From a bacterium (lineage in GTDB: Bacteria > Arandabacterota > Arandabacteria > Arandabacterales > JALGWA01): a stretch of DNA of 10,487 nt. The DNA lies in the NCBI GenBank assembly GCA_050125095.1, contig JASFEA010000112.1:1-10487 (forward strand), written 5' to 3'. This document shows positions 1 to 10,487 of the stretch, one piece after another. Every line of letters starts with the position of its first letter. The stretch's first letter is position 1. The notes beneath the pieces were generated by a model that saw nothing but the letters and a program-made list of their open reading frames with translations, did no database searches and was not told the DNA's origin. A program made the position numbers and the translations under genes.

Positions 1-3000
1 GCCGTCCGCTGCGCCACTCGAGTTTGGGAGCGCCGTAAGGGCAGGCTGCGACGCACATTCCGCAGCCGGCGCAGATGTCCGCGTCCACGCTGGCGACGTT
101 CGCCACCGAGAGGTACTCATCCGAGCTTATGATGGTGCAGGCCCTCTCCGCAGCCGCCTTGGCCTGAGATATGGTCTCCTCCACCATTTTGGGCGAATGC
201 GCGAGACCGGCGAGGAAAATGCCCTCCGCCGAGAAGTCAACCGGCCTCAGCTTGACATGCGCCTCCATGAAGAAGTTGTCTTCATTGAGAGGGATCTTCA
301 GCATCTGCGAAAGGACCGACGCGTCCTCCTGGGGAACCATCGCCGGGGCCAGTATCACCTTTGAGGGCCTGATCTCCAGATCGGCCCCCAGCACGTGGTC
401 CCTCACCCTCACGGTGATCTTGCCGCCTTCCCCGTCTTCGCGCTCGATCACGGGTTTCCTGTCCTCGTCGTACCTTATGAAAGTGACCCCGAGAGCCCTT
501 GCCTCCTGGTAGTACGCCTCGTAGAAACCATATGTGCGGATGTCACGATAGAGGATATACACATTCATCCTGGGATTGATCTTCTTCAACCTTATGGCGT
601 TCTTTATGGCCTGTGTGCAGCATACCCTGGAGCAATACATGCGCTCTTCATCCCTGGAGCCGACGCATTGCACCATCACGACGTCCTTTACCTTCTTATA
701 CGCCGCCTCTCCCTTCTCGAGGTCGTCCTCCAGCTCGAGCTGGGTCATGACATCCGGCTCGCCGTCTCCGTATAGATATTCCTTCGGCTTCATCTCGTTC
801 GCGCCGGTCGCTATCAGTATCACGCCGTGCTCGAAGTCCTCTGTCTCCCCGCTGTCCTTCATCCTTATGGTGGTGACGTAATTTCCGATGTAGCCGTCGA
901 CGGCGGCGATCTCGGCGTTTGTGAAGACCTTGATGCGCTTGTGGTTCCCGATCTTCTCCTTGAGTTCCTCGAGGAATTCAACGACGCCCCTGCCATCGGG
1001 CATTCTCTTCAGGCGCACGAGATTGCCTCCGAGGCGCTCTTTCCGCTCCACCAGCGCCACTTCGAAGCCCTGCTCGGCTATCGACAGCGCGGCGGTCATC
1101 CCGGCCAGCCCCCCGCCGACTACCAGCCCCTTCTGCGTAACGGGCAGGGCCACGGAGTGCAACGGCTCCAGCAGGCGCGCCTTGCCGACCGCTATTCTCG
1201 TCAGGATCTTGGCCTTCTCGGTCGCTTTGGCGTGGTCGTCGCGATGCACCCAGCTGCAGTGGTTCCTTATATTGGCCATATCGAAGAGATAAGGATTCAG
1301 GCCCGACTCCTTGAGCGTTTCCTGGAAAAGCGGCTCATGAGTGCTCGGAGAACATGACGAAACCACGACCCGGTTGAGTTTCTGCTCCTCGATTACCTGT
1401 TTTATCTTCTCCTGTGTATCCTGAGAACAGGTGAAGAGGTTCTCCTCCGCATAGACGACATCCGGCAGCGTCCTTGCGTATTCGACAACTGACGGGACAT
1501 CCACGACGCTTCCGATGTTGATGCCGCAATGGCACACGAAGACGCCTATACGCGGCCTCTGGCCGCCGACGTCCTTCTCGGGCGGGTATTCCTTCTTGCT
1601 TATTTCCGTCCCGCGCGCATCGGCGAGGATCTCGCCGGCGCCGCCCACCGCCCCGGAGGCCTGCATGACCGTCTCGGGTATGTCCTTGGGCGACACGGCG
1701 GGGCCGCACACGAATACGCCGGGGCGGGTCGTATCCACCGGCGAATTCCCCGAGTGCTCGATGAAGCCGTACTGGTTCAGACGGATGCCCAGCTTGTCCG
1801 AGAGGTCTTTCATGTCTCTCCTCGGCGTAAGGCCGACCGAAAGCACCACGAGGTCGAATTCCTCCACGATGTTCTCGCCGCTTTCCGTGACGTAAAGGAC
1901 CTCGAGATTCCCGGACTTCTCTATCTCCCTTATCTTCCCTACCCTGGCCCGGATGAATCGCACCCCGGTATCCTTGGCCCTCTCATAGAACCGGTCGAAG
2001 TCCTTTCCGTACGCCCTGAGGTCCATGAAGAAAATCGCCGGCTCGACGGTTTCGACATGCTCCTTGGCTATAATGGCTTCCTTCATGGCATACATGCAGC
2101 ACACCGAGGAGCAGTAGGGCATGTGACAGTCCTCAGTCCTCGACCCCACGCATTGCAGCCACGCGACTTTAACCGGCACCTTGCCGTCCGAAGGCCTCTG
2201 GAGGTGCCCTTCATAGGGACCCGACGCCGCCAGGATTCTCTCGAATTCGATACTTGTCAGCACGTTCCTGTATCTTCCGTACCCGTATTCGTGGAGGGGA
2301 ACCGGATCATACTTGTCGGCCCCGGTGGTGATGATTATCGAACCCACGTTTATGTCCCGCATCTCTTCCTTCTGATCGAAGTCGATGGCGTCCGCTTCAC
2401 AGAACTCCTTGCAGATCTGGCAATCACCCGTGTTGAGGTGAATGCAGTACCTGGGATCGATATTGGCGTAATTGGGAACGGCCTGGGCATAGGGTATATA
2501 GGCCGCGGCCCTGTCCACCAGGCCCGCGTCGAACTCCGACTTGATTCTCATGGGCGTGTTCGCCGTTATCTCATCGAGCTTTATGCCAATACCGGTGGGG
2601 CAGACGCTGTAACAGGCCCCGCAGGTCTGGCACTCGTCCGAATGCGCGTCGAAGGCCGGTGATATAACCCGCCCGCTCCCCCTGTTGGAAAACGCAAGCA
2701 CCCCCCTGCCCATCCTCTCCTTGCAGATGCGCACGCACAATCCGCAGAGGATGCAGTCGTCGTTCTTGGGCTCGATCCTCTGCCCCGTCACGCCGAGCTC
2801 CCCGGCTATGGTCTTGATATTCTCGGAATCGGGGCACCTGGCGAGCAGGAGCTCCGCCATGAGCCTGCGCGTCTTTATGACCCTCTCGGTGGAAGTCCTG
2901 ACTGTCAGCCCTTCCCGTGCAGGGTAGTTGCACGAAGTCTGTATTGAAGTCCTGCCGCCGGCTTCGACTTCGACCAGGCAGAGTCGGCAGGCGCCGTACG

Positions 3001-3133
3001 GAGTAAGGGCCTTGTGATAGCAGAGCGTCGGGATCTTGATATCGAGCTTGGCGCATGCTTCGAGCAGCGTCGCTCCCTTCTCGACCTCGACGGGCCTGTC
3101 ATCGATCACGAGTTTGATCTTGTCGCTTTCCAT
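1..3133 (-). CDS. hdrA: NuoG/HydA-type N-terminal Fe-S domains fused to a tandem HdrA-like flavoprotein (C-terminal part of HdrA module 1 + full HdrA module 2); 3' end beyond window
   Basis: Hand translation from ATG 3133 (2 nt after the upstream TAG; GGTGG at 3145-3141) is open to position 2 (1044 codons). NuoG/HydA N-terminal part: MESDKIKLVIDDRPVEVEKGATLLEAC..IPTLCYH..GACRLCLVEV..TSC ([2Fe-2S]), CILCGLCVRIC and CQTCGACYSVCP. HdrA module 1 remainder: SEFDAGLVDRAAAYIPYAQAVP, YGYGRYRNVLTSIEFERIL, WLQCVGSR..YCSSVCCMYAMKEA, PKDIPETV. HdrA module 2: RIGVFVCHCGINIG, SCSPSTHE, NIRNHCSWVH, VVGGGLAG, QCVGSR..YCSRVCCTQAIKNA, FFMEAHVKLRPVD, CAGCGMCVAACP. Probably absent from the ORF track because it has no stop in the window. 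Confidence 0.93.
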   Translation of the reverse strand, partial: MESDKIKLVIDDRPVEVEKGATLLEACAKLDIKIPTLCYHKALTPYGACRLCLVEVEAGGRTSIQTSCNYPAREGLTVRTSTERVIKTRRLMAELLLARCPDSENIKTIAGELGVTGQRIEPKNDDCILCGLCVRICKERMGRGVLAFSNRGSGRVISPAFDAHSDECQTCGACYSVCPTGIGIKLDEITANTPMRIKSEFDAGLVDRAAAYIPYAQAVPNYANIDPRYCIHLNTGDCQICKEFCEADAIDFDQKEEMRDINVGSIIITTGADKYDPVPLHEYGYGRYRNVLTSIEFERILAASGPYEGHLQRPSDGKVPVKVAWLQCVGSRTEDCHMPYCSSVCCMYAMKEAIIAKEHVETVEPAIFFMDLRAYGKDFDRFYERAKDTGVRFIRARVGKIREIEKSGNLEVLYVTESGENIVEEFDLVVLSVGLTPRRDMKDLSDKLGIRLNQYGFIEHSGNSPVDTTRPGVFVCGPAVSPKDIPETVMQASGAVGGAGEILADARGTEISKKEYPPEKDVGGQRPRIGVFVCHCGINIGSVVDVPSVVEYARTLPDVVYAEENLFTCSQDTQEKIKQVIEEQKLNRVVVSSCSPSTHEPLFQETLKESGLNPYLFDMANIRNHCSWVHRDDHAKATEKAKILTRIAVGKARLLEPLHSVALPVTQKGLVVGGGLAGMTAALSIAEQGFEVALVERKERLGGNLVRLKRMPDGRGVVEFLEELKEKIGNHKRIKVFTNAEIAAVDGYIGNYVTTIRMKDSGETEDFEHGVILIATGANEMKPKEYLYGDGEPDVMTQLELEDDLEKGEAAYKKVKDVVMVQCVGSRDEERMYCSRVCCTQAIKNAIRLKKINPRMNVYILYRDIRTYGFYEAYYQEARALGVTFIRYDEDRKPVIEREDGEGGKITVRVRDHVLGADLEIRPSKVILAPAMVPQEDASVLSQMLKIPLNEDNFFMEAHVKLRPVDFSAEGIFLAGLAHSPKMVEETISQAKAAAERACTIISSDEYLSVANVASVDADICAGCGMCVAACPYGAPKLEWRSGR

Positions 3134-3135
3134 TT

Positions 3136-5043
3136 CTATTCCACCATGACCGCGCCGAACTTGCAGACATCAAAACAAGCTCCGCACTTTGTGCACCTGA
3201 CCGGGTCGATCGAATGGGGCTTCTTGGGCTGGCCCGTTATCGCGCCGACCGCGCAGTTCTTGAGGCAGAGAGTACATCCGGTACAGGTCTCCGCGTCTAT
3301 GCTGTATGTGATAAGGCCCTTGCAGACATGGGCCGGGCACTTGCCCGACTCCGTATGGGCTCTGTACTCGTCTCTGAAATACTCAATAGTGGAAAGCACG
3401 GGATTGGACAGCGTCTGGCCCAGCCCGCACTGCGAAGCGTCCTTGACTGCCTCTCCAAGCTCAAGCAGGAACTCGATGTCTTCAGGCTTCCCGTTGCCCT
3501 GAGTTATCCTCTCGAGCGTCCTCAGCATCAACTCGCTGCCTTCTCTGCACGAGGTGCACTTGCCGCAGGATTCGTCATTCGTGAACTCGAGGAAGTACTT
3601 GGCGATATCGACAACGCAGGTGTCCTCATCCATTACCACCATGCCGCCGGACCCCATTATGGACCCGGCCTCGGCCAGCCGCTCATAATCGACGGGCAGG
3701 TCTATCAGCGACGCCGGTATGCAGCCCCCTGACGGACCGCCGGTCTGAATCGCCTTGAACTCCTTGTCCTCCAGGATGCCCTCGCCGACTTCGAATATTA
3801 TCTCCCTGAGCGTGATGCCCATCGGCACCTCCACGAGGCCGGTGTTCTTTACCTTCCCGACGAGAGAAAACACCTTTGTGCCTTTGGACTTCTCCGTGCC
3901 GATTCCGGCATACCAGGAGCTGCCCTTCTCGATTATCGCCGGGACATTCGCCCAGGTCTCCACGTTGTTGATATTGGTGGGACTGTCCCACAGCCCCGAT
4001 TCGGCAGGGAAAGGAGGCCTGTTCCTCGGCTCCGGCGAGATACCCTCGATGGAGTGTATGAGAGACGTCTCTTCCCCGCAGACAAAGGCTCCCGATCCTT
4101 CGCGGATCCTGATATCGAAGGAGAATCCGGAGCCGAAGATGTTCTCACCCAGGAATCCCGCCGACGTGGCCTGCTGTAGCGCCCTCTGGAGCCTCTCAAT
4201 CGCCAGCGGGTACTCGCTTCTCACATATATGAACCCTCTCTGGGCCCCTATGGCGTAGCCGCCGATTATCATGCCCTCGATCACCGTGTGGGGATCTCCC
4301 TCGAGAACCGACCTGTCCATGTAGGCTCCCGGGTCGCCTTCATCGGCGTTGCATATGATGTACTTGGCGTCTCCCTCGGCCCTCCTCGTAAACTCCCATT
4401 TGAGGCCGGTGGGGAATCCCCCGCCTCCGCGCCCCCTCAGGCCGGACTTCTTTACCTCATCGATGACCTGCTCCGGTGACATATCCGTGAGGACCCTGTA
4501 TAGCGACCTGTAACCCGACCGGGCGACGTACTCCTCGATGCAACCCGGGTCTATATACCCGCAGTTTCTTAAGGCGATCTTCACCTGCTTGGCAAAGAAC
4601 GGGACTTCCTCGTAGAGAGGTATTCCCGCGATCCCGTTGTCGCCGGCGTCGCGTTCATACTCCTTAAACTCCTCGCCGAGCAGCGTTTCCCTGTCATGCC
4701 TGCAGAGCACGTATTCTTCAGGGAATTTGCCTTCCTTGAGAGCGTCTATGAGCTCCGCCGCTTTGGGAGCGCTCATTTCGGCAAGGGTGAGCCTTGGTTT
4801 GCCAGGGATATATACGTCCACAAGGGGCTCCCTCTGGCAGAACCCGAGGCATCCCGTGGGCGACAGCACCGCTTCGAGGCCCGTCCGGGCGATTGACTTC
4901 TCGAGTTCATCGAATACGTCCTGGGCCCCGGTGGCAAGACCGCAGGTGGCCATACCCACGGCGATCTTGATGGTGCCCGGGTACATGGACTCGAGGCCCT
5001 TCTTGCCAAGGTCCTCCAACCTCTTCGTACTCTCAGCGCTCAT
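3136..5043 (-). CDS. nuoF: NADH/FMN-binding NuoF/HydB-like subunit (about 635 aa) with N-terminal thioredoxin-like [2Fe-2S] domain and C-terminal 2x[4Fe-4S]
   Basis: Motifs SGLRGRGGGGFPTG, CNADEGDPGAYMDR, GAFVCGEETSL, NNVET, GGPSGGC, ESCGKCTSCREG..SQCGLG. N-terminal GMATCG..TGCLGFCQREP; C-terminal CTGCTLCLKNC and CTKCGACFDVC. Start placed at ATG 5043 (ATGA overlap with the upstream stop; AAGGA at 5054-5050) instead of the track's 5145. The architecture is that of a soluble HydB-type protein, not respiratory complex I. Confidence 0.93.
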   Translation of the reverse strand: MSAESTKRLEDLGKKGLESMYPGTIKIAVGMATCGLATGAQDVFDELEKSIARTGLEAVLSPTGCLGFCQREPLVDVYIPGKPRLTLAEMSAPKAAELIDALKEGKFPEEYVLCRHDRETLLGEEFKEYERDAGDNGIAGIPLYEEVPFFAKQVKIALRNCGYIDPGCIEEYVARSGYRSLYRVLTDMSPEQVIDEVKKSGLRGRGGGGFPTGLKWEFTRRAEGDAKYIICNADEGDPGAYMDRSVLEGDPHTVIEGMIIGGYAIGAQRGFIYVRSEYPLAIERLQRALQQATSAGFLGENIFGSGFSFDIRIREGSGAFVCGEETSLIHSIEGISPEPRNRPPFPAESGLWDSPTNINNVETWANVPAIIEKGSSWYAGIGTEKSKGTKVFSLVGKVKNTGLVEVPMGITLREIIFEVGEGILEDKEFKAIQTGGPSGGCIPASLIDLPVDYERLAEAGSIMGSGGMVVMDEDTCVVDIAKYFLEFTNDESCGKCTSCREGSELMLRTLERITQGNGKPEDIEFLLELGEAVKDASQCGLGQTLSNPVLSTIEYFRDEYRAHTESGKCPAHVCKGLITYSIDAETCTGCTLCLKNCAVGAITGQPKKPHSIDPVRCTKCGACFDVCKFGAVMVE

Positions 5044-5942
5044 TTGTAATCCTTCAGTATCTTCGGCAGGTCGCTGATCTTGACCCGCCCGTAGACCTTG
5101 TCGTTTACCATTATCGCCGGAGCGAGACTGCAGCAACCGAGACATCTGGCCGATTCAATTGTGAACCGCATGTCCTCGGTCGTGCCGCCCGGCGCCGTGT
5201 CCAGCTGCTCGCACAGTCTCTGCAGCAGCTTGTCGGCTCCCCTGACGTAACAGGTCGTCCCCATGCACACGCTGATCTTGTGCCTGCCCCTCGGCTCCAG
5301 GCTGAACGCGTTGTAGAACTTCGCGATGCTGTAGATGTCGGATATTTTGACTTCGAGCTCGACGGCCACGTAACGGAGGACTTCCTTCGGAAGGTAGTTG
5401 TATTGCCTGTTGATCTCCTGCAGCACCGGCATCAGGCTGCCCCTGCGGCCCCTGTGCTTATCCAGGATCCCGTCCACGATGTCCCGGTCCTTCTTCTCGA
5501 TTTCGAGCTCGGGCGCCTCTATCTGATACACCGCCCTGGTCACGGGGCAGTTCTGGGTGCACGCGCCGCAGCCGGTGCACTTGGCGGGATCGATGTATCT
5601 CGGCTTCTGCTTGACCCTGACCTCGAAGTTGCCCGCCTCGCCCGTAACTTCCTCGAGCTCCGAGTTGGTGATCAGATCGATATTCAGGTGCCGCCCGCAG
5701 GCCACCAGCTTAGGGGAAATCACGCACATGGCGCAGTCGTTCGTGGGGAAGGTCTTGTCCAGCTGCGCCATGGTCCCGCCGATCGCCGGTGTCTCTTCGA
5801 GCAGGTATACCTTGAATCCCGAGTCTGCGAGGTCGAGCGAGGACTGGATCCCGGCTATGCCTCCCCCTACTACCATTACCGCCCCGGATTTCGCCTTCTT
5901 ATCCTCTTTGTCCATCTGATCAGCTTCCCGCTTTTCGTTCAT
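5040..5942 (-). CDS. Fusion of HdrA N-terminal fragment (FAD-binding beta-alpha-beta + one [4Fe-4S] motif) with NuoE/HydC-like [2Fe-2S] domain
   Basis: N-half is HdrA-like: AVMVVGGGIAGIQSSLDLADSGFKVYLLE..IGGTMAQLDKTFPTNDCAMCVISPKL..PRYIDPAKCTGCGACTQNCPV. C-half is NuoE/HydC-like: LMPVLQEINRQYNYLP..FYNAFSLEPRGRHKISVCMGTTCYVRG..RCLGCCSLAP. Alternative start at ATG 5915. Confidence 0.92.
   Translation of the reverse strand: MNEKREADQMDKEDKKAKSGAVMVVGGGIAGIQSSLDLADSGFKVYLLEETPAIGGTMAQLDKTFPTNDCAMCVISPKLVACGRHLNIDLITNSELEEVTGEAGNFEVRVKQKPRYIDPAKCTGCGACTQNCPVTRAVYQIEAPELEIEKKDRDIVDGILDKHRGRRGSLMPVLQEINRQYNYLPKEVLRYVAVELEVKISDIYSIAKFYNAFSLEPRGRHKISVCMGTTCYVRGADKLLQRLCEQLDTAPGGTTEDMRFTIESARCLGCCSLAPAIMVNDKVYGRVKISDLPKILKDYK
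5050..5054 (-). promoter_or_regulatory. Shine-Dalgarno site for the NuoF/HydB-like gene (translational coupling)
   Basis: AAGGA 6 nt upstream of ATG 5043, which overlaps the upstream TGA (ATGA). Confidence 0.6.
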
Positions 5943-5955
5943 CCCTTACTGACCC

Positions 5956-7092
5956 CTAGGCCCCGCCGGCCCTTAGCCTCTCCAGCGTCGCCTCTCCGCG
6001 CCGTTTCTTGAGCTCCGCGAATTCCTCCACAAGAGATACTATCCTCTGTCTTTCTCCCGCACGTTCCTGCGCCGACTGTCTCGATATACACTGAAGTCCT
6101 CCGTTGTACAGGGCGTCCGCGAACATCTCTTTACCCTTTATGCTGCGGATCAATACCGTCGTGTATCCGTCGGGGGAGCCCAGGCCTCCGACGGAGATAT
6201 CCGCAAAGTCGTTCGCGAAGAGCCGGCAGGCAAGGCACGCGGGCCTGGCGATTTCCTCGATCTCCTTCAGGGGAATATGAATGGTAATTCCGGATTTCAT
6301 CTTAAGGACGAAATCCTCCTTGATGTTCACCCTCGCTATATCTTCAACCTTGATCTTGTGGGACTTGATGACTTCCTTCTCCATCAGGTTGCCTACCTCG
6401 AAGCACTGCATGCAGAAGAGCCCGATGGCGAAAGTGACCATGTCCGACGGTGTGATCTGGAGGATCTGCATTTTCCTTATCGCGTCTATCTGGCAGGGGG
6501 TCCCGACGACGGCCAATTTCCTCACCTTCTTCGGCGCGATATCCTGTATGGACTTGACGACAGGAACGTAGGTCGTGTAACCCTTGCCGACTTCCTCGAG
6601 ATGAGGAGATTCTTCGAACTGCGAACCTGCCGCCTGCAGGAGTTCTTCCCGGGTGGTCGCGACCACGGCCTTCCTGCGCAGAGGGTCGGCGCTTACGGAC
6701 ACGACGGCCCCGTCGATGAGGCCCTTATCGAGCATGTGAATCAAGAGCGATGTCACGACGCCGCCGTCCGTCGCCCTGTCCCGGACTTCCGTATGGGCGC
6801 TCCTGGCAGAGAAGACGTCCAGCACGTTCCCGATAGGGGGTTTCCACCTGAAGTGCTCGTCGACTTCGTCCTTCATGGGATGAGTCTGCGGACAGACCAT
6901 ATAACAGAGCCCGCACTCCAGGCACTTGTCCTTGTCCCCGTATGACGGGAAGCCCGCTTCGTCCATCACCAGCGCCCCTATCCTGTTCGCGGAACAGAAT
7001 GAAACGCATCCCCCGCACTTGCCGCATATGCCCTGTTTGATGACTTCGGATTCAAGATCCGCGAATGACCACGTTCGGCCTTTTTCCATCAT
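5956..7092 (-). CDS. Coenzyme F420 hydrogenase/dehydrogenase beta-subunit family protein (FrhB/FdhB/FpoF-like) with N-terminal 2x[4Fe-4S] ferredoxin domain
   Basis: CGKCGGCVSFC and CLECGLCYMVCP, then FrhB-family motifs TDGGVVTSLL, VVGTPCQIDAIRK, IGLFCM, CLAC..ADISVGGLGS. The start could be the second ATG (7089), which gives better spacing to the upstream AGGGA. Confidence 0.88.
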   Translation of the reverse strand: MMEKGRTWSFADLESEVIKQGICGKCGGCVSFCSANRIGALVMDEAGFPSYGDKDKCLECGLCYMVCPQTHPMKDEVDEHFRWKPPIGNVLDVFSARSAHTEVRDRATDGGVVTSLLIHMLDKGLIDGAVVSVSADPLRRKAVVATTREELLQAAGSQFEESPHLEEVGKGYTTYVPVVKSIQDIAPKKVRKLAVVGTPCQIDAIRKMQILQITPSDMVTFAIGLFCMQCFEVGNLMEKEVIKSHKIKVEDIARVNIKEDFVLKMKSGITIHIPLKEIEEIARPACLACRLFANDFADISVGGLGSPDGYTTVLIRSIKGKEMFADALYNGGLQCISRQSAQERAGERQRIVSLVEEFAELKKRRGEATLERLRAGGA

Positions 7093-7146: not shown

Positions 7147-7617
7147 TTACCAGTCGTCCTTGGCCAGCTCCTCGACCTTTGAACGGATCTTGTCGGCCTT
7201 CTTCTTGCCGGGGTGCAGCTTGTTGTCGATAAGCAGGCACCTCAGTTCCTGGACGGCCCTGTCCAGCTCCTTCGCCTCTTCCTGCCTCTTCTCGGGGACG
7301 TAGCCCTCCTTTATGGCCATGCCCCTCAAGACGCTTATTACATCCGTGAATTTCACGTTCTGAGGGCAGAGCGCGTGGCACGTATAACACCTGGAGCACA
7401 TCCAGAGGATATCCGATGACAGGACTTCCTCGCGCATCCCGAGGATGGCCATCCTGATGATCTTCCTCGGATCATACTCTTCGTGCACTTCGGCCACCGG
7501 GCAGGAGGCCGTGCATGTCCCGCAGGTGAAGCATCGCATGAACACCTCCGCCCCCGGCTGGGAAGCGATCTCGTTCTTGAAGTTCGGGTCTTTCTCGCTG
7601 AGTACGATCTTTTCCAT
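7147..7617 (-). CDS. hdrC: Heterodisulfide reductase subunit C-like 2x[4Fe-4S] protein (156 aa)
   Basis: CFTCGTCTASCPV..YDPRKIIRMAILGMREEVLSSDILWMCSRCYTCHALCPQNV is the typical HdrC pattern. Start set at ATG 7617 because AAGGAG lies 9 nt upstream; the track's 7740 start would overlap flxA. Confidence 0.88.
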   Translation of the reverse strand: MEKIVLSEKDPNFKNEIASQPGAEVFMRCFTCGTCTASCPVAEVHEEYDPRKIIRMAILGMREEVLSSDILWMCSRCYTCHALCPQNVKFTDVISVLRGMAIKEGYVPEKRQEEAKELDRAVQELRCLLIDNKLHPGKKKADKIRSKVEELAKDDW

Positions 7618-7626
7618 CCGGATTAT

Positions 7627-7632
7627 CTCCTT
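7627..7632 (-). promoter_or_regulatory. Shine-Dalgarno site for hdrC
   Basis: AAGGAG on the minus strand, overlapping the flxA TAA, 9 nt before ATG 7617. Confidence 0.75.
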
Positions 7633-8465
7633 TAGATCATCTCCGGTATTTCCCCGATCTCCTCCATTGAGAAGACCGGCCCGTCGATGCATATATACTT
7701 GGATCCGATGTTGCATCGCCCGCACTTGCCTATGCCGCACTTCATCCGCCTCTCGAGCGACGTGTAGACCCTTGCGTCAGGGAAATCGAGCTCCTTGAGC
7801 ACGGGCAGGGTGAACTTGATCATTATGGGCGGCCCGCAGAGAACCACCCACGCGTTCTCGGTACCGGGCGCCACTTCCTTGACGACCGCGGGCACGAATC
7901 CGGTAAGCCCCGTCCACCCCTCCACCGGATTGTCGATAGTGAGATGAAGGGTCAGGTCGTCTCTTTTCTGCCACTCATTCAGCTCGTCTTTATACAGGAA
8001 GAGGTCGGGGTTCCGGACCCCGTAGATCACCGTTATGTCGCCGTAGTCCTGCCTGTGCTCGATGAGGTAAACGAGCAGCGACCTCAGGGTCGTAAATGCG
8101 AATCCCCCGCCTACTATTACTATGTTTCCGCCCTTGAATTTCTCAACCGGGTACCAGTTGCCGAGCGGCCCCCGGATGCCGACGATATCTCCCTCTCTCA
8201 GGCAGTGAATCTCATTGGTGACCGAACCCGTCCTGTTCACCGTGAACCTCAGGAAGCCGGGCTCGGTGGGAGATGAGGCGATGCCGAAGGGGGATTCCCC
8301 CTTGCCGAGCAGGGAGAATTCGCAGAACTGCCCGGGCATATATTCGAATCTCTTCTCGTCGGCTTCGTCCACGAACGATAGATCGAAGGTCCGCAGGGCC
8401 TTGTCCGGGTCCTCCACCATTATCTTCTTAACCTTCATGTTTATCGGGATATATGTATTGCTCAT
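7632..8465 (-). CDS. flxA: FAD/NAD(P)-binding oxidoreductase with C-terminal [2Fe-2S], FlxA (AsrB/PyrK-like family)
   Basis: PGQFCEFS..GESPFGIASSP, RGPLGN, GGGFAFTTLRSL, CGPPIMIK, SLERRMKCGIGKCGRCNIG..CIDGPVF. Context next to hdr genes and two Flx-type Fe-S genes. ATGA overlap with the upstream gene. Confidence 0.87.
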   Translation of the reverse strand: MSNTYIPINMKVKKIMVEDPDKALRTFDLSFVDEADEKRFEYMPGQFCEFSLLGKGESPFGIASSPTEPGFLRFTVNRTGSVTNEIHCLREGDIVGIRGPLGNWYPVEKFKGGNIVIVGGGFAFTTLRSLLVYLIEHRQDYGDITVIYGVRNPDLFLYKDELNEWQKRDDLTLHLTIDNPVEGWTGLTGFVPAVVKEVAPGTENAWVVLCGPPIMIKFTLPVLKELDFPDARVYTSLERRMKCGIGKCGRCNIGSKYICIDGPVFSMEEIGEIPEMI

Positions 8466-9505
8466 CTGGCACCTTTGTCTTCATAGGAGAGAACGCCCCT
8501 GACAACTTCCCTTATGTCGACGTTAACCGGGCATGCGATAATGCACCTGCCGCAGCCCGTGCATAGTGATTCTCCGTAATTGTCCACGAAGTAGGAGAAC
8601 TTATGCATGAACCGCTGTCGGAACCGGTCTCTCGACAGTTTCCTGGGATTGTGGCCGGAGGCCTCCATGGTGAATATCGGGAACATGCAGGAGTCCCATA
8701 TGCGTATGCGTTTCCCCTTCCCGCCCTTGCCCTCATCCTGTACGTCGAAGCAGTGGCAGGTCGGGCACACAAACGCGCAGGCGCCGCAGTTGACGCACTT
8801 GGCGGCGAGCTCATCCCAGATATCCTCGTTGAAGACGGCCTTGAGTCTCGCGTCAAGACCATCGAGCTCGCCCGGCGGATTCATCATCTTCCTGGCCCCG
8901 TCCGCCAATTTGGCAGCCTTCTTTTCATCCTTGGCGGAGGCTTTATCCAGACCGCCCATCTTGTCGATGAAGGCCCTGCCCTTGTCCGTCCGGGGCTCCA
9001 TCAGGAAGGCGTCGCCCGCGTCGACGACGAAGACATCCGAGCCCTCTCCGCCGTGCGGATCGCCGCCCAGCCAGTTGCAGAAGCAGGTCGAGCGCGGCTC
9101 GTTGCACGCGAGACCGAAGACGAGCGAGTCGTCGTATTTGCGTTTCCAGTAAGGGTCTTGGAACATCTCGTTCTCCGGCATCTGCCTGGCCCTTCCGAAC
9201 ACCATGTCGAGCAGCCTAAGGCCCCTGGAGTCGCAGCCCCTCAGCCCCCATACGGCTATCGGCTTCGCGGGCTGCTCCACTTCCCGGACCCCTTCCCGGT
9301 CGTACTCGAAAAGCACCTCCGAGTGGGGGAAGAACACCTCCTTGGGGGATCTGTCCGTGACAAGGCAGGTCGCGTCTATGTCCTCGGCCGACTCGATCAC
9401 CTTGAAGCCCGACTTCCCGTTGGCGGTCACGGGCGCATAGACTGCAAAGTCCGCCGCCAGCGACCGGATGAAGTCGGCGAATCCTTCCTTCTCAAGTCTG
9501 ACCAT
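8462..9505 (-). CDS. flxB: Iron-sulfur protein FlxB (AsrA/sulfhydrogenase beta-like family)
   Basis: SPKEVFFP, GLRGCD, C..PRSTCFC, CVNCGACAFVCPTCHCFD, RIWDSC, RFRQRFMHKF, CTGCGRCIIACP; lies directly upstream of flxA. Confidence 0.85.
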   Translation of the reverse strand: MVRLEKEGFADFIRSLAADFAVYAPVTANGKSGFKVIESAEDIDATCLVTDRSPKEVFFPHSEVLFEYDREGVREVEQPAKPIAVWGLRGCDSRGLRLLDMVFGRARQMPENEMFQDPYWKRKYDDSLVFGLACNEPRSTCFCNWLGGDPHGGEGSDVFVVDAGDAFLMEPRTDKGRAFIDKMGGLDKASAKDEKKAAKLADGARKMMNPPGELDGLDARLKAVFNEDIWDELAAKCVNCGACAFVCPTCHCFDVQDEGKGGKGKRIRIWDSCMFPIFTMEASGHNPRKLSRDRFRQRFMHKFSYFVDNYGESLCTGCGRCIIACPVNVDIREVVRGVLSYEDKGAR

Positions 9506-9510
9506 TCTCC

Positions 9511-10476
9511 CTACCCCATTATGAAGTCTTGTTTCTCATCTTCCCGGAAGTCGGCCATGGCCGGTTTCTCGCCGGAGTCCATTCCAGTTACATAGCCGAA
9601 TCGCTCCTCGACCTCCCTGGCGGCCTTCCGGTTGAGAAGAAGCAATTCCAGTCCCATGGGACAAGCTCTCTCGCACGCGCCGCACTCCACGCACCTCCCG
9701 GCAACATGCAGGTTCCGGATTATATGGAATATCATGGTGTCGGTTATCTCGGGGGTCTTGCCTACCCACTGCGGGTCATTCTGGTCTACGAAACACTCGT
9801 TGCAATAGCATGACGGGCAAACGTTCCTGCAGGCATAGCATCTGATGCACCTTGAGTACACTTCCGTCATCTTCTCCCAGCGCTCCCCGGGACTCAGCTT
9901 CTCGAATTCATCGAGCGCCGCGTTCTGGTCCTTCCCGTCTTGCCTGTCTCTCGCCTCCCCGATGAATATGTCGTACTCCCTGGCATCCGGATAAACGCAG
10001 GTGAGGCAGGAGTTGCTGAGCACGTCCTCGGCGTCCAGCGTGAGGTCGAGGTCCTTGCCCCTGACCGTGATCTTGCCGTCCTCTTCCGAGTATTCGAGCA
10101 CCTCCCGGCCGCCAGCCGCGTCCGCCACCTTGTTCCTGTCCAGAACGCCCCGGCAGGGAACACCTATGATTACTATGTTCTCTCTTTTTGCCTGTCTCTC
10201 CGCCAGGTAGAGGGACAGCGACCGCGCGTCGCAGCCCTTGACCACGATACCGACCTTCCTGCCGGATTTTGCAAGCCGCCTGGCGTCCTTGGTAAAGTAG
10301 ACCGCTGGGTTGTTGCCGCATGTCGCGTCGAAAATCAGCCGGTCGGCGTCCTCGGGGCTCTCTATGAAAGCCGGCGTAGCCGCAAGCGCGCGGGACCCTT
10401 TCTCCCAGCCGATCACGAGTTCGACCTCTCCGTCGGCGAGCAGCTTCCTTACCTTTTCCCGCAGTTCATTCACCAC
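9511..10476 (-). CDS. flxC: Iron-sulfur protein FlxC (FdhB C-terminal-like 4Fe-4S dicluster protein)
   Basis: VIGW, GIVVKGCDARS, IIGVPC, CLTC, CIRCYACRNVCPSCYCNEC, HVAGRCVECGACERACP. GTG start at 10476 (or 10473) with GGAG at 10487-10484; position upstream of flxB-flxA. Confidence 0.82.
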   Translation of the reverse strand: MVNELREKVRKLLADGEVELVIGWEKGSRALAATPAFIESPEDADRLIFDATCGNNPAVYFTKDARRLAKSGRKVGIVVKGCDARSLSLYLAERQAKRENIVIIGVPCRGVLDRNKVADAAGGREVLEYSEEDGKITVRGKDLDLTLDAEDVLSNSCLTCVYPDAREYDIFIGEARDRQDGKDQNAALDEFEKLSPGERWEKMTEVYSRCIRCYACRNVCPSCYCNECFVDQNDPQWVGKTPEITDTMIFHIIRNLHVAGRCVECGACERACPMGLELLLLNRKAAREVEERFGYVTGMDSGEKPAMADFREDEKQDFIMG

Positions 10477-10487
10477 TTCTACGCTCC

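Follow-up and report, generated by a model that had tools for sequence, protein, structure and literature searches.

A predicted Bfu-type module nested within the split first unit of a double HdrA

The class II benzoyl-CoA reductase of Geobacter metallireducens, Bam[(BC)2DEFGHI]2, is the closest characterised system to the gene set described here, although it is wired differently. According to a recent preprint (bioRxiv 10.64898/2026.04.10.717634), a Bfu module has been shown in this enzyme to feed a fused double HdrA: BamGHI confurcates NADH and reduced ferredoxin and feeds BamE via the C-terminal ferredoxin domain and BamF, and the inserted ferredoxin domain of BamE is the low-potential exit to BamBC. 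Related parts have been described in other arrangements, such as nuoEFG beside mvhD and hdrA in the Desulfotignum paper, where all are separate genes, and the HdrA of anaerobic methanotrophic (ANME-1) archaea, which is described with an NfnB-like insert of the same type as that of HdrL (PMC9012536). Here we analyse a window of 10,487 nucleotides from a bacterium of the Arandabacterota (GCA_050125095.1, contig JASFEA010000112.1) which, judging from its domains and motifs, encodes a complete HydBC/Bfu-type NADH- and ferredoxin-handling module nested in the ferredoxin domain that is inserted in unit 1 of a double HdrA.

The window is the entire contig C112 of a 3.35-Mb genome in 268 contigs, and its minus strand carries every gene. 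The first gene of the set, P1 (5942-5040, minus strand, 300 residues), was recognised from its open reading frame, Pfam and structure alignments as a fusion of an N-terminal piece of HdrA with NuoE/BfuC, and its start is probably Met10 at 5915, relatives being about 291 residues long. Pfam assigns FAD_oxidored to residues 22-59, Fer4 to 116-134 and 2Fe-2S_thioredx to 157-300. HdrA piece 1 (P1 residues ~20-135; 5538..5885, minus strand) contains the Rossmann beta-alpha-beta element for flavin adenine dinucleotide (FAD), a CxxC pair equivalent to Cys194/Cys197 and the first CxxCxxCxxxCP motif of the inserted ferredoxin domain. The NuoE/HydC/BfuC thioredoxin-like [2Fe-2S] domain (P1 residues 157-300; 5043..5474, minus strand; PF01257, E 5.5e-49) matches 7Q4V_C, 8A6T_C and 9BOV_C at E 1e-38 to 1e-41, with residues 151-299 corresponding to residues 8-156 of HydC in the structure-chain alignment (7Q4V_C, E 4.9e-41).

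The second gene is a free NuoF/HydB/BfuB (3136..5043, minus strand, 635 residues), whose likely start, ATG 5043-5041, overlaps the P1 stop TGA at 5042-5040 (ATGA). Its product is a full bifurcating-type HydB/BfuB with an N-terminal thioredoxin-like [2Fe-2S] domain, a core for flavin mononucleotide and NADH and a C-terminal 2x[4Fe-4S] ferredoxin domain, as evidenced by an end-to-end alignment to 9BOV_B that reaches the last residue (E 1e-227; N-domain 26-110), by further end-to-end alignments with 8OH5_B, 9N5U_B, 7T2R_B and 7Q4V_B (StnB, NfnB and HydB chains), and by Pfam matches in its open reading frame to Complex1_51K, NADH_4Fe-4S and Fer4_7 (620-665). The stop at 3138-3136 is followed by a 2-nt spacer and the ATG of P3 at 3133. 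P3 (3133-2, minus strand, 1044 residues, open at the contig end) joins, according to structure alignments, the N-terminus of NuoG/BfuA to the remainder of HdrA and a second HdrA unit. Its NuoG/HydA/BfuA piece (residues 1-190; 2564..3133, minus strand) has one [2Fe-2S] and two [4Fe-4S] motifs (Fer2_4 at 4-82, Fer4_7 at 127-182), and residues 4-188 align to residues 3-188 of the NuoG-like chain 9MQX_A (E 1.7e-35). HdrA piece 2 (residues 193-520; 1574..2557, minus strand) supplies the missing second half of the inserted ferredoxin domain (C230, C238, C241, C245) and continues with what is left of flavin domain 1, including its four-Cys cluster (C328, C341, C345, C346), and with Lys351, and the second HdrA unit occupies the end of P3 (2..1561, minus strand). 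The set contains the parts by which Bfu/HydABC-type modules are described in PMC9304861, namely the BfuB domain set, the [2Fe-2S] of BfuC and the N-terminal [2Fe-2S] and [4Fe-4S] motifs of BfuA.

The two HdrA pieces are colinear with a single solved HdrA. Residues 21-134 of P1 align to 145-258 of 5ODC_A (E 6.5e-42), and P3 matches the same chain three times, 193-450 to 256-510, 525-759 to 2-237 and 899-1043 to 462-606 (whole-protein E 4.6e-161). The halves abut at residue ~256-258 of 5ODC_A with nothing lost or duplicated: Val134 of the CPV motif in P1 ends at base 5541, and Ser199 of the SEFDAGL segment in P3 starts at base 2539. The host is a fused double HdrA (tandem, BamE-like) with 34% identity between its units (E 1e-27). 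The rule of one polypeptide per HdrA unit does not hold for unit 1, which is divided over two genes with two stop codons and nuoF between them. A first-pass annotation made from the letters alone had proposed that a nested NuoE/NuoF/NuoG-N cassette of about 3 kb separates two halves of one HdrA, in intact and translationally coupled frames; the alignments, the ATGA overlap and the 2-nt spacer bear this out, and both junction bases that it gave are exact.

The residues expected to hold the cofactors are conserved on both sides of the break. In alignments of 50 relatives for each fusion (53-93% identity), G26, G28 and G31 of the GxGxxG motif, C70 and C73 (aligned to Cys194/Cys197 of 5ODC), C122, C125, C128 and C132 of the first ferredoxin motif, and the NuoE [2Fe-2S] ligands C226, C231, C267 and C271 are invariant in P1. 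The same is true in P3 for the BfuA residues C38, C49, C52, C68, C127-C137 and C168-C178, for the second ferredoxin motif (C230-C245), for the four-Cys cluster C328/C341/C345/C346 and for the cysteines of the N-terminal domain of unit 2. Lys351 of P3 aligns to K409 of 5ODC, and an equivalent Lys is also found in unit 2. The features of an HdrA flavin domain, namely GxGxxG, the four-Cys cluster and the Lys opposite flavin N5, are therefore all present, but spread across P1 and P3, and the inserted 2x[4Fe-4S] ferredoxin domain is likewise complete, with motif 1 on P1 (C122-C132) and motif 2 on P3 (C230-C245).

The two units also complement each other, in that unit 2 has the N-terminal domain and lacks the Cys194/197 pair, and unit 1 has the pair and lacks the domain. 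Such complementarity is described for tandem or fused HdrA, in which one unit lends its Cys197 as a ligand to the N-terminal cluster of its partner (PMC9012536), and the Cys197 equivalent in the CxxC pair of P1 probably does the same for the N-terminal-domain cluster of unit 2 in P3. From these residues we infer that P1 and P3 jointly form three cofactor sites: the unit 1 flavin, the cluster pair of the inserted ferredoxin domain and the cluster of the N-terminal domain. Structure prediction of P1 with residues 1-520 of P3, performed with custom alignments under a limit of 1000 residues, supports this reassembly, giving an interaction prediction score from aligned errors (ipSAE) of 0.84 versus 0.00 for the best control; the ipSAE mark is reached by 58 of 80 solved complexes and by 2 of 110 mismatched pairs. 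The runs agreed in at least 96% of about 430 contacts, with a predicted local distance difference test (pLDDT) value of at least 83 for the partner. The tightest predicted contacts are those of P3 260-268 with P1 22-25 and 106-109, and of P3 207-252 with P1 116-134, suggesting that the interface would rebuild the Rossmann sheet (P3 260-268) and the ferredoxin domain (P3 207-252) across the chains. The NuoE part is in contact with the BfuA part in the same model.

Contigs assembled independently from other sequencing runs cross both junctions, which the first-pass annotation had named as the places where misassembly would show. A contig of 12,030 nt from run X1 spans 2300-5754 with 18 differences and zero gaps, and contigs from X2, X3 and X4, which belong to other studies, also bridge the junctions with no indels listed; one of the four runs may be the source sample. 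The DNA is present in sediment and wetland habitats. X1 and X2 share a lone odd joint (4353 to 4456, its shorter side 23 letters long), which is probably due to cross-matching of a paralogue.

The two fusions flanking nuoF, which the first-pass annotation had proposed to look for elsewhere, recur in many genomes. HdrA-N and NuoE share one open reading frame in 23 of the 80 loci fetched from species genomes, with nuoF next in 20 of these and NuoG-N joined to HdrA in 13, the remainder being cut by contig ends; the 23 loci are recorded as Candidatus Eisenbacteria, Aegiribacteria/Fermentibacterota, Sabulitectum and Krumholzibacteriota. Among the best 120 protein clusters for P1, 119 carry PF12831 together with PF01257, and all of the best 120 for P3 residues 100-330 span the complete NuoG-N/HdrA junction, with sources including Cloacimonetes, KSB1, WOR-3, Stahlbacteria and Aminicenantes. 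At 50% identity, eight of the best 150 P1 representatives cover both halves in full (P0361-P0368) and a further 16 are fragments that span the junction; all others match the HdrA part only or the NuoE part only, which means that tallies by E value are no measure of family size. Four of the first eight (P0364-P0367, 418-436 residues) have about 140 extra N-terminal residues ahead of the HdrA piece, which could be the HdrA N-terminal cluster domain, i.e. a split of a single, non-tandem HdrA.

Longer relatives are also found, and five of the best 120 cover at least 89% of P1. HdrA-N::NuoE::NuoF fusions of 750-932 residues are represented by P0241, P0243 (~931 residues), P0246 and P0247, and P0242 (1356 residues) adds a GltD-like (Fer4_20) part to HdrA-N::NuoE::NuoF, which indicates that Bfu and GltD-type modules can share one chain. 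No protein with all five parts in one chain was seen among these best 120 longer proteins, which is weak evidence of absence. In P0244 (669 residues), the HdrA N-piece and NuoE are fused to histidine-kinase and receiver domains (PF00512, PF02518, PF00072), a combination that may make this protein a redox sensor derived from the split piece. Full-text literature searches gave no description of an HdrA split around NuoEFG/Bfu, in keeping with the first-pass annotation, which knew of no characterised example; supplementary tables, such as Supplementary Table 1 of PMC9304861, may hold an earlier mention.

The closest relative of the split set is a gene with another insert. Where the window has the split set, loci of Neomarinimicrobiota, Delongbacteria and Cloacimonadota have, after the same upstream genes, a single gene of ~1480 residues, consisting of the HdrA N-piece, an insert of ~507 residues, the HdrA remainder and the second unit. 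Its insert carries Fer4_20 and Pyr_redox_2 (GltD/NfnB-like; Pfam, comparison protein L047), and from this composition the gene is identified as HdrL as it is described in PMC2702500; neither P1 nor P3 has such a domain. The HdrA N-piece of the window shows 70-79% identity to HdrL proteins versus 49-56% to intact tandem HdrA from those loci. In trees of the shared part (FastTree of 87 rows, quick IQ-TREE of 32 rows), the 11 rows of the split type join the 13 HdrL rows of the Fibrobacterota-Chlorobiota-Bacteroidota (FCB) superphylum in one clade, with support 100 in both trees, and the intact tandem HdrA encoded alongside falls outside it. L036, an HdrL, is nested within the Fermentibacterota split clade, and constraining the split rows together was rejected (approximately unbiased test, p-AU 0.0003; the group was named after the tree had been seen, which weakens the test). 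Because of this nesting and this rejection, the split and HdrL states are taken to have switched at least twice among close relatives, and L036 points to a recent switch between the GltD-like insert and the Bfu cassette.

The breakpoints of the two types differ when compared with intact tandem HdrA (L005) and HdrL, the split lying right after the first Cys motif and the HdrL insert ~30 residues later, just before the second. The first-pass annotation had proposed that the cassette was inserted into the ferredoxin loop of HdrA; its nested position stands, whereas a historical insertion would go beyond the trees, which give only the sisterhood and interconversion of the split type and HdrL.

The genes upstream provide further redox subunits. 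Directly upstream of P1 lies a gene for a FrhB-family flavoprotein with 2x[4Fe-4S] (5956..7092, minus strand, 378 residues; 8RIU_B, E 6.7e-46), which takes the same place in 22 of the 23 split loci, the exception being L013. It is preceded by genes for an HdrC-like 2x[4Fe-4S] protein of ~156 residues without a CCG domain (7147..7617, minus strand; Pfam), a sulfhydrogenase-gamma/FlxA-like NAD(P)H subunit with FAD and [2Fe-2S] (7632..8465, minus strand, 277 residues; 9NEZ_C, E 4.5e-51), a sulfhydrogenase-beta/FlxB-like iron-sulfur subunit (8462..9505, minus strand, 347 residues; Fer4_22; 9NEZ_B, E 1.2e-48) and an iron-sulfur protein that resembles the C-terminus of FdhB (9511..10476, minus strand, 321 residues; 190-306 versus 272-384 of 7BKB_E, E 6.4e-29). 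Subunits like the C-terminal part of FdhB feed HdrA in Fdh-Hdr complexes. The open reading frame of the HdrC-like protein (7147-7740, 197 residues) overlaps the upstream gene by 109 nt, and its relatives align from residue 37-42; the start is probably the ATG at 7617 (Met42 of the frame). A second sulfhydrogenase beta/gamma-like pair, with 34% identity to that of the window, was observed directly downstream of the split set in one member of the Krumholzibacteriia (L022:12075-14076).

The operon continues onto another contig. The end of C1 in the same genome (G000:C1:69577-69730) corresponds to window 10334-10487 over 154 nt at 99% identity, and because of this overlap C1 is joined to the window, which is the tail of an operon of at least roughly 26 kb. 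The front of the operon on C1, on the same strand, encodes an ArsR regulator, a YeeE/YedE-type sulfur transporter, three rhodanese-domain proteins (a porin among them) and a DsrE-like protein, and the continuation encodes, in order, MvhD, two separate HdrA proteins, two FdhB-C-like proteins, MvhD, an intact tandem HdrA (1039 residues) and MvhD. The tandem HdrA-MvhD-FdhB-C-like junction recurs in L005 and L021. As on C1, a sulfur transporter lies ~11 kb upstream of the tandem HdrA, on the same contig and strand, in the Krumholzibacteriota genome G001, the only one of five relative genomes in which the linkage of transporter and operon could be placed. Many further HdrA, MvhD and CCG-domain genes occur elsewhere in the genome of the window. 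A single in-frame TGA was observed in several MvhD/HdrA-like paralogues (G000:C47:7366-7734, C16:9270-9965, C1:45149-45874 and C47:10864-11139), and these codons may specify selenocysteine, as in HdrA and MvhD of Desulfobacterium.

Combining the alignments, conservation and structure prediction, we consider it quite probable that the three chains make up one obligate complex, in which BfuA and the rebuilt ferredoxin domain connect the Bfu core to the unit 1 flavin of HdrA. Two polypeptides would then, after folding, make up the unit 1 flavin site and each cluster of the inserted ferredoxin domain, and the rebuilt domain would adjoin the BfuA clusters, providing a fixed wire from the Bfu core to the HdrA arm through which low-potential electrons leave in solved complexes. 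It is with more hesitation, at slightly less than even chances, that we favour Bfu as the electron input to HdrA; this direction is preferred because in the sister HdrL this domain, in the same operon slot, houses an NAD(P)H module, and by that analogy Bfu would replace the GltD-like input module of HdrL, which handles NAD(P)H only. The rest of the operon, through the sulfhydrogenase beta/gamma-like subunits, the FdhB-C-like proteins and MvhD, would add a second NAD(P)H port. Judging from the transporter, rhodaneses and DsrE at the operon front, which would deliver it, sulfane sulfur is the probable sink for the electrons. A wider and rather doubtful proposal is that two bifurcating machines have been fused at shared cofactor sites into a soluble complex of ~20 subunits, which would take NADH and reduced ferredoxin (and NAD(P)H at a second port) and dispose of the electrons on imported sulfur in two coupled bifurcation steps; the inserted ferredoxin domain would serve as a general docking socket in which GltD-like and Bfu modules have been swapped repeatedly.

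Other explanations of the locus were considered. The short 10.5-kb contig from a fragmented, metagenome-type assembly of 268 contigs could be a chimera of hdrA and nuoEFG produced by assembly or binning, but independent contigs from four runs of four studies span the junctions without indels and the same layout is seen in 23 loci from many separate assemblies, so that misassembly was rejected and an artefact of this kind has a negligible chance of being true. If the layout is real, the HdrA fragments on NuoE and NuoG might be relics on the genes of an ordinary NuoEFG-type diaphorase, a reading suggested by the unusual layout alone and by the generic database names 'NADH:ubiquinone oxidoreductase subunit E' and 'FAD-dependent oxidoreductase'. 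Relics would hardly keep all cofactor ligands and GxGxxG invariant in 50 relatives per chain, down to 53-55% identity, nor would the two pieces be expected to co-occur wherever contigs permit a view or to rebuild a fold at their predicted interface, and this reading is very improbable.

The direction of electron flow is less settled, and several observations weigh against Bfu as input in a single obligate complex. In solved complexes, low-potential electrons leave through the inserted ferredoxin domain; entry there is contrary to the only characterised Bfu-HdrA wiring, in which the Bfu of Bam enters at the C-terminal ferredoxin domain with an MvhD; and the canonical input path, with Flx-like NAD(P)H subunits, FdhB-C-like proteins and MvhD, is already encoded in the operon. 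The operon stretch read (8 window proteins and 15 upstream proteins of C1) has no HdrB/CCG protein and no obvious sulfur-reducing catalytic subunit, none of the RNA datasets matches window 2300-5800, and the structure prediction, which may pass through likeness to solved HdrA and HydABC structures, is a measure of likeness rather than of binding. P3 itself is truncated by the contig end, beyond which it cannot be extended; complete copies in ten relatives have 1088-1118 residues, leaving the window copy short by ~45-75. Some of these points suit an opposite flow, in which the Flx-like and FdhB-C-like proteins and MvhD feed the flavin via the C-terminal ferredoxin domain as in solved Hdr complexes, the flavin bifurcates, the low-potential electron passes through the rebuilt domain to BfuA, and Bfu reduces ferredoxin and NAD+. 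Such a flow would agree with the low-potential exit role of the inserted domain described for Mvh-Hdr and BamE, with the full canonical input set encoded directly upstream, and with the reversibility of Bfu enzymes described in PMC9304861. Routing electrons that are already of low potential into a second, NADH-making bifurcation looks wasteful, however, and the NAD(P)H-binding module that HdrL has in this domain is usually read as input, as in the D. autotrophicum paper (PMC2702500); we consider the opposite flow unlikely, if worth keeping in mind, and retain Bfu as input to HdrA as the tentative reading.

Benzoyl-CoA reductase is the one enzyme in which two bifurcation modules have been shown, only recently, to be coupled, and there the link is made by separate proteins and an adaptor. 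The coupling predicted in the window would be fixed by gene structure and attached at a different arm of HdrA, providing a natural test of the chaining of HydBC-type and HdrA-type bifurcation and of the inserted ferredoxin domain as an entry. Sisterhood with HdrL points to a reusable socket for input modules, and flavin and cluster sites made of two chains would be of unusual interest to protein engineers. Members of the family are common among uncultured bacteria that are fermenters or resemble syntrophs, recorded as Eisenbacteria, Fermentibacterota, Krumholzibacteriota, Cloacimonadota, WOR-3, KSB1 and Aminicenantes, and metabolic reconstructions miss them because their annotation goes no further than 'NuoE' and 'FAD-dependent oxidoreductase'.

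The HdrA of the methanogen MvhAGD-HdrABC and Fdh-Hdr complexes (5ODC, 7BKB, 8RVU) has the same fold, cofactor motifs and Cys197 cross-ligation logic as far as these are described in PMC9012536, and the FdhB-C-like protein and MvhD encoded near the HdrA of the window have counterparts there. It differs in being one chain that forms a homodimer, in which the inserted ferredoxin domain reduces free ferredoxin, and in being accompanied by HdrBC with CCG domains, which are absent from the operon stretch of the window. FlxABCD-HdrABC (Flox-Hdr), known from Desulfovibrio and syntrophs, consists of whole HdrABC and has no Bfu module. Flx-Hdr has been noted in Krumholzibacteriota (PMC7382037), and the operon of the window resembles it in having FlxA-, FlxB- and FlxC-like genes beside HdrA and MvhD; it departs from it in the lack of HdrB and CCG proteins in the stretch read and in the nesting of Bfu in HdrA. 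Likeness to class II benzoyl-CoA reductase extends to the coupling of a HydBC/Bfu-type module (BamGHI) to a fused double HdrA (BamE), where confurcation is followed by bifurcation, and to a unit 1 with an inserted ferredoxin domain and a CxxC pair. All subunits of Bam are separate whole genes, BamE and BamGHI among them as the first-pass annotation had stated (bioRxiv 10.64898/2026.04.10.717634), whereas here HdrA is split and Bfu is covalently fused into the inserted ferredoxin domain; the Bfu of Bam is joined instead through BamI to the C-terminal ferredoxin domain and the MvhD-like adaptor BamF, and no tungsten BamB, BamC or HdrD-like CCG BamD is encoded among the 8 window and 15 upstream C1 proteins. 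HdrL, the 'heterodisulfide reductase/glutamate synthase fusion' of Desulfobacterium autotrophicum (PMC2702500), which the same annotation had rightly set apart as a different NAD-binding module within one chain, shares more of the layout: like the set of the window, it is a fused double HdrA in which a nicotinamide-handling module separates the two Cys motifs of the inserted ferredoxin domain, and HdrL genes occupy the operon slot of the split set. The two differ in how the interruption is made, HdrL being a single chain with a GltD/NfnB-like insert, and the set of the window a three-subunit Bfu for which the host gene is broken in two.

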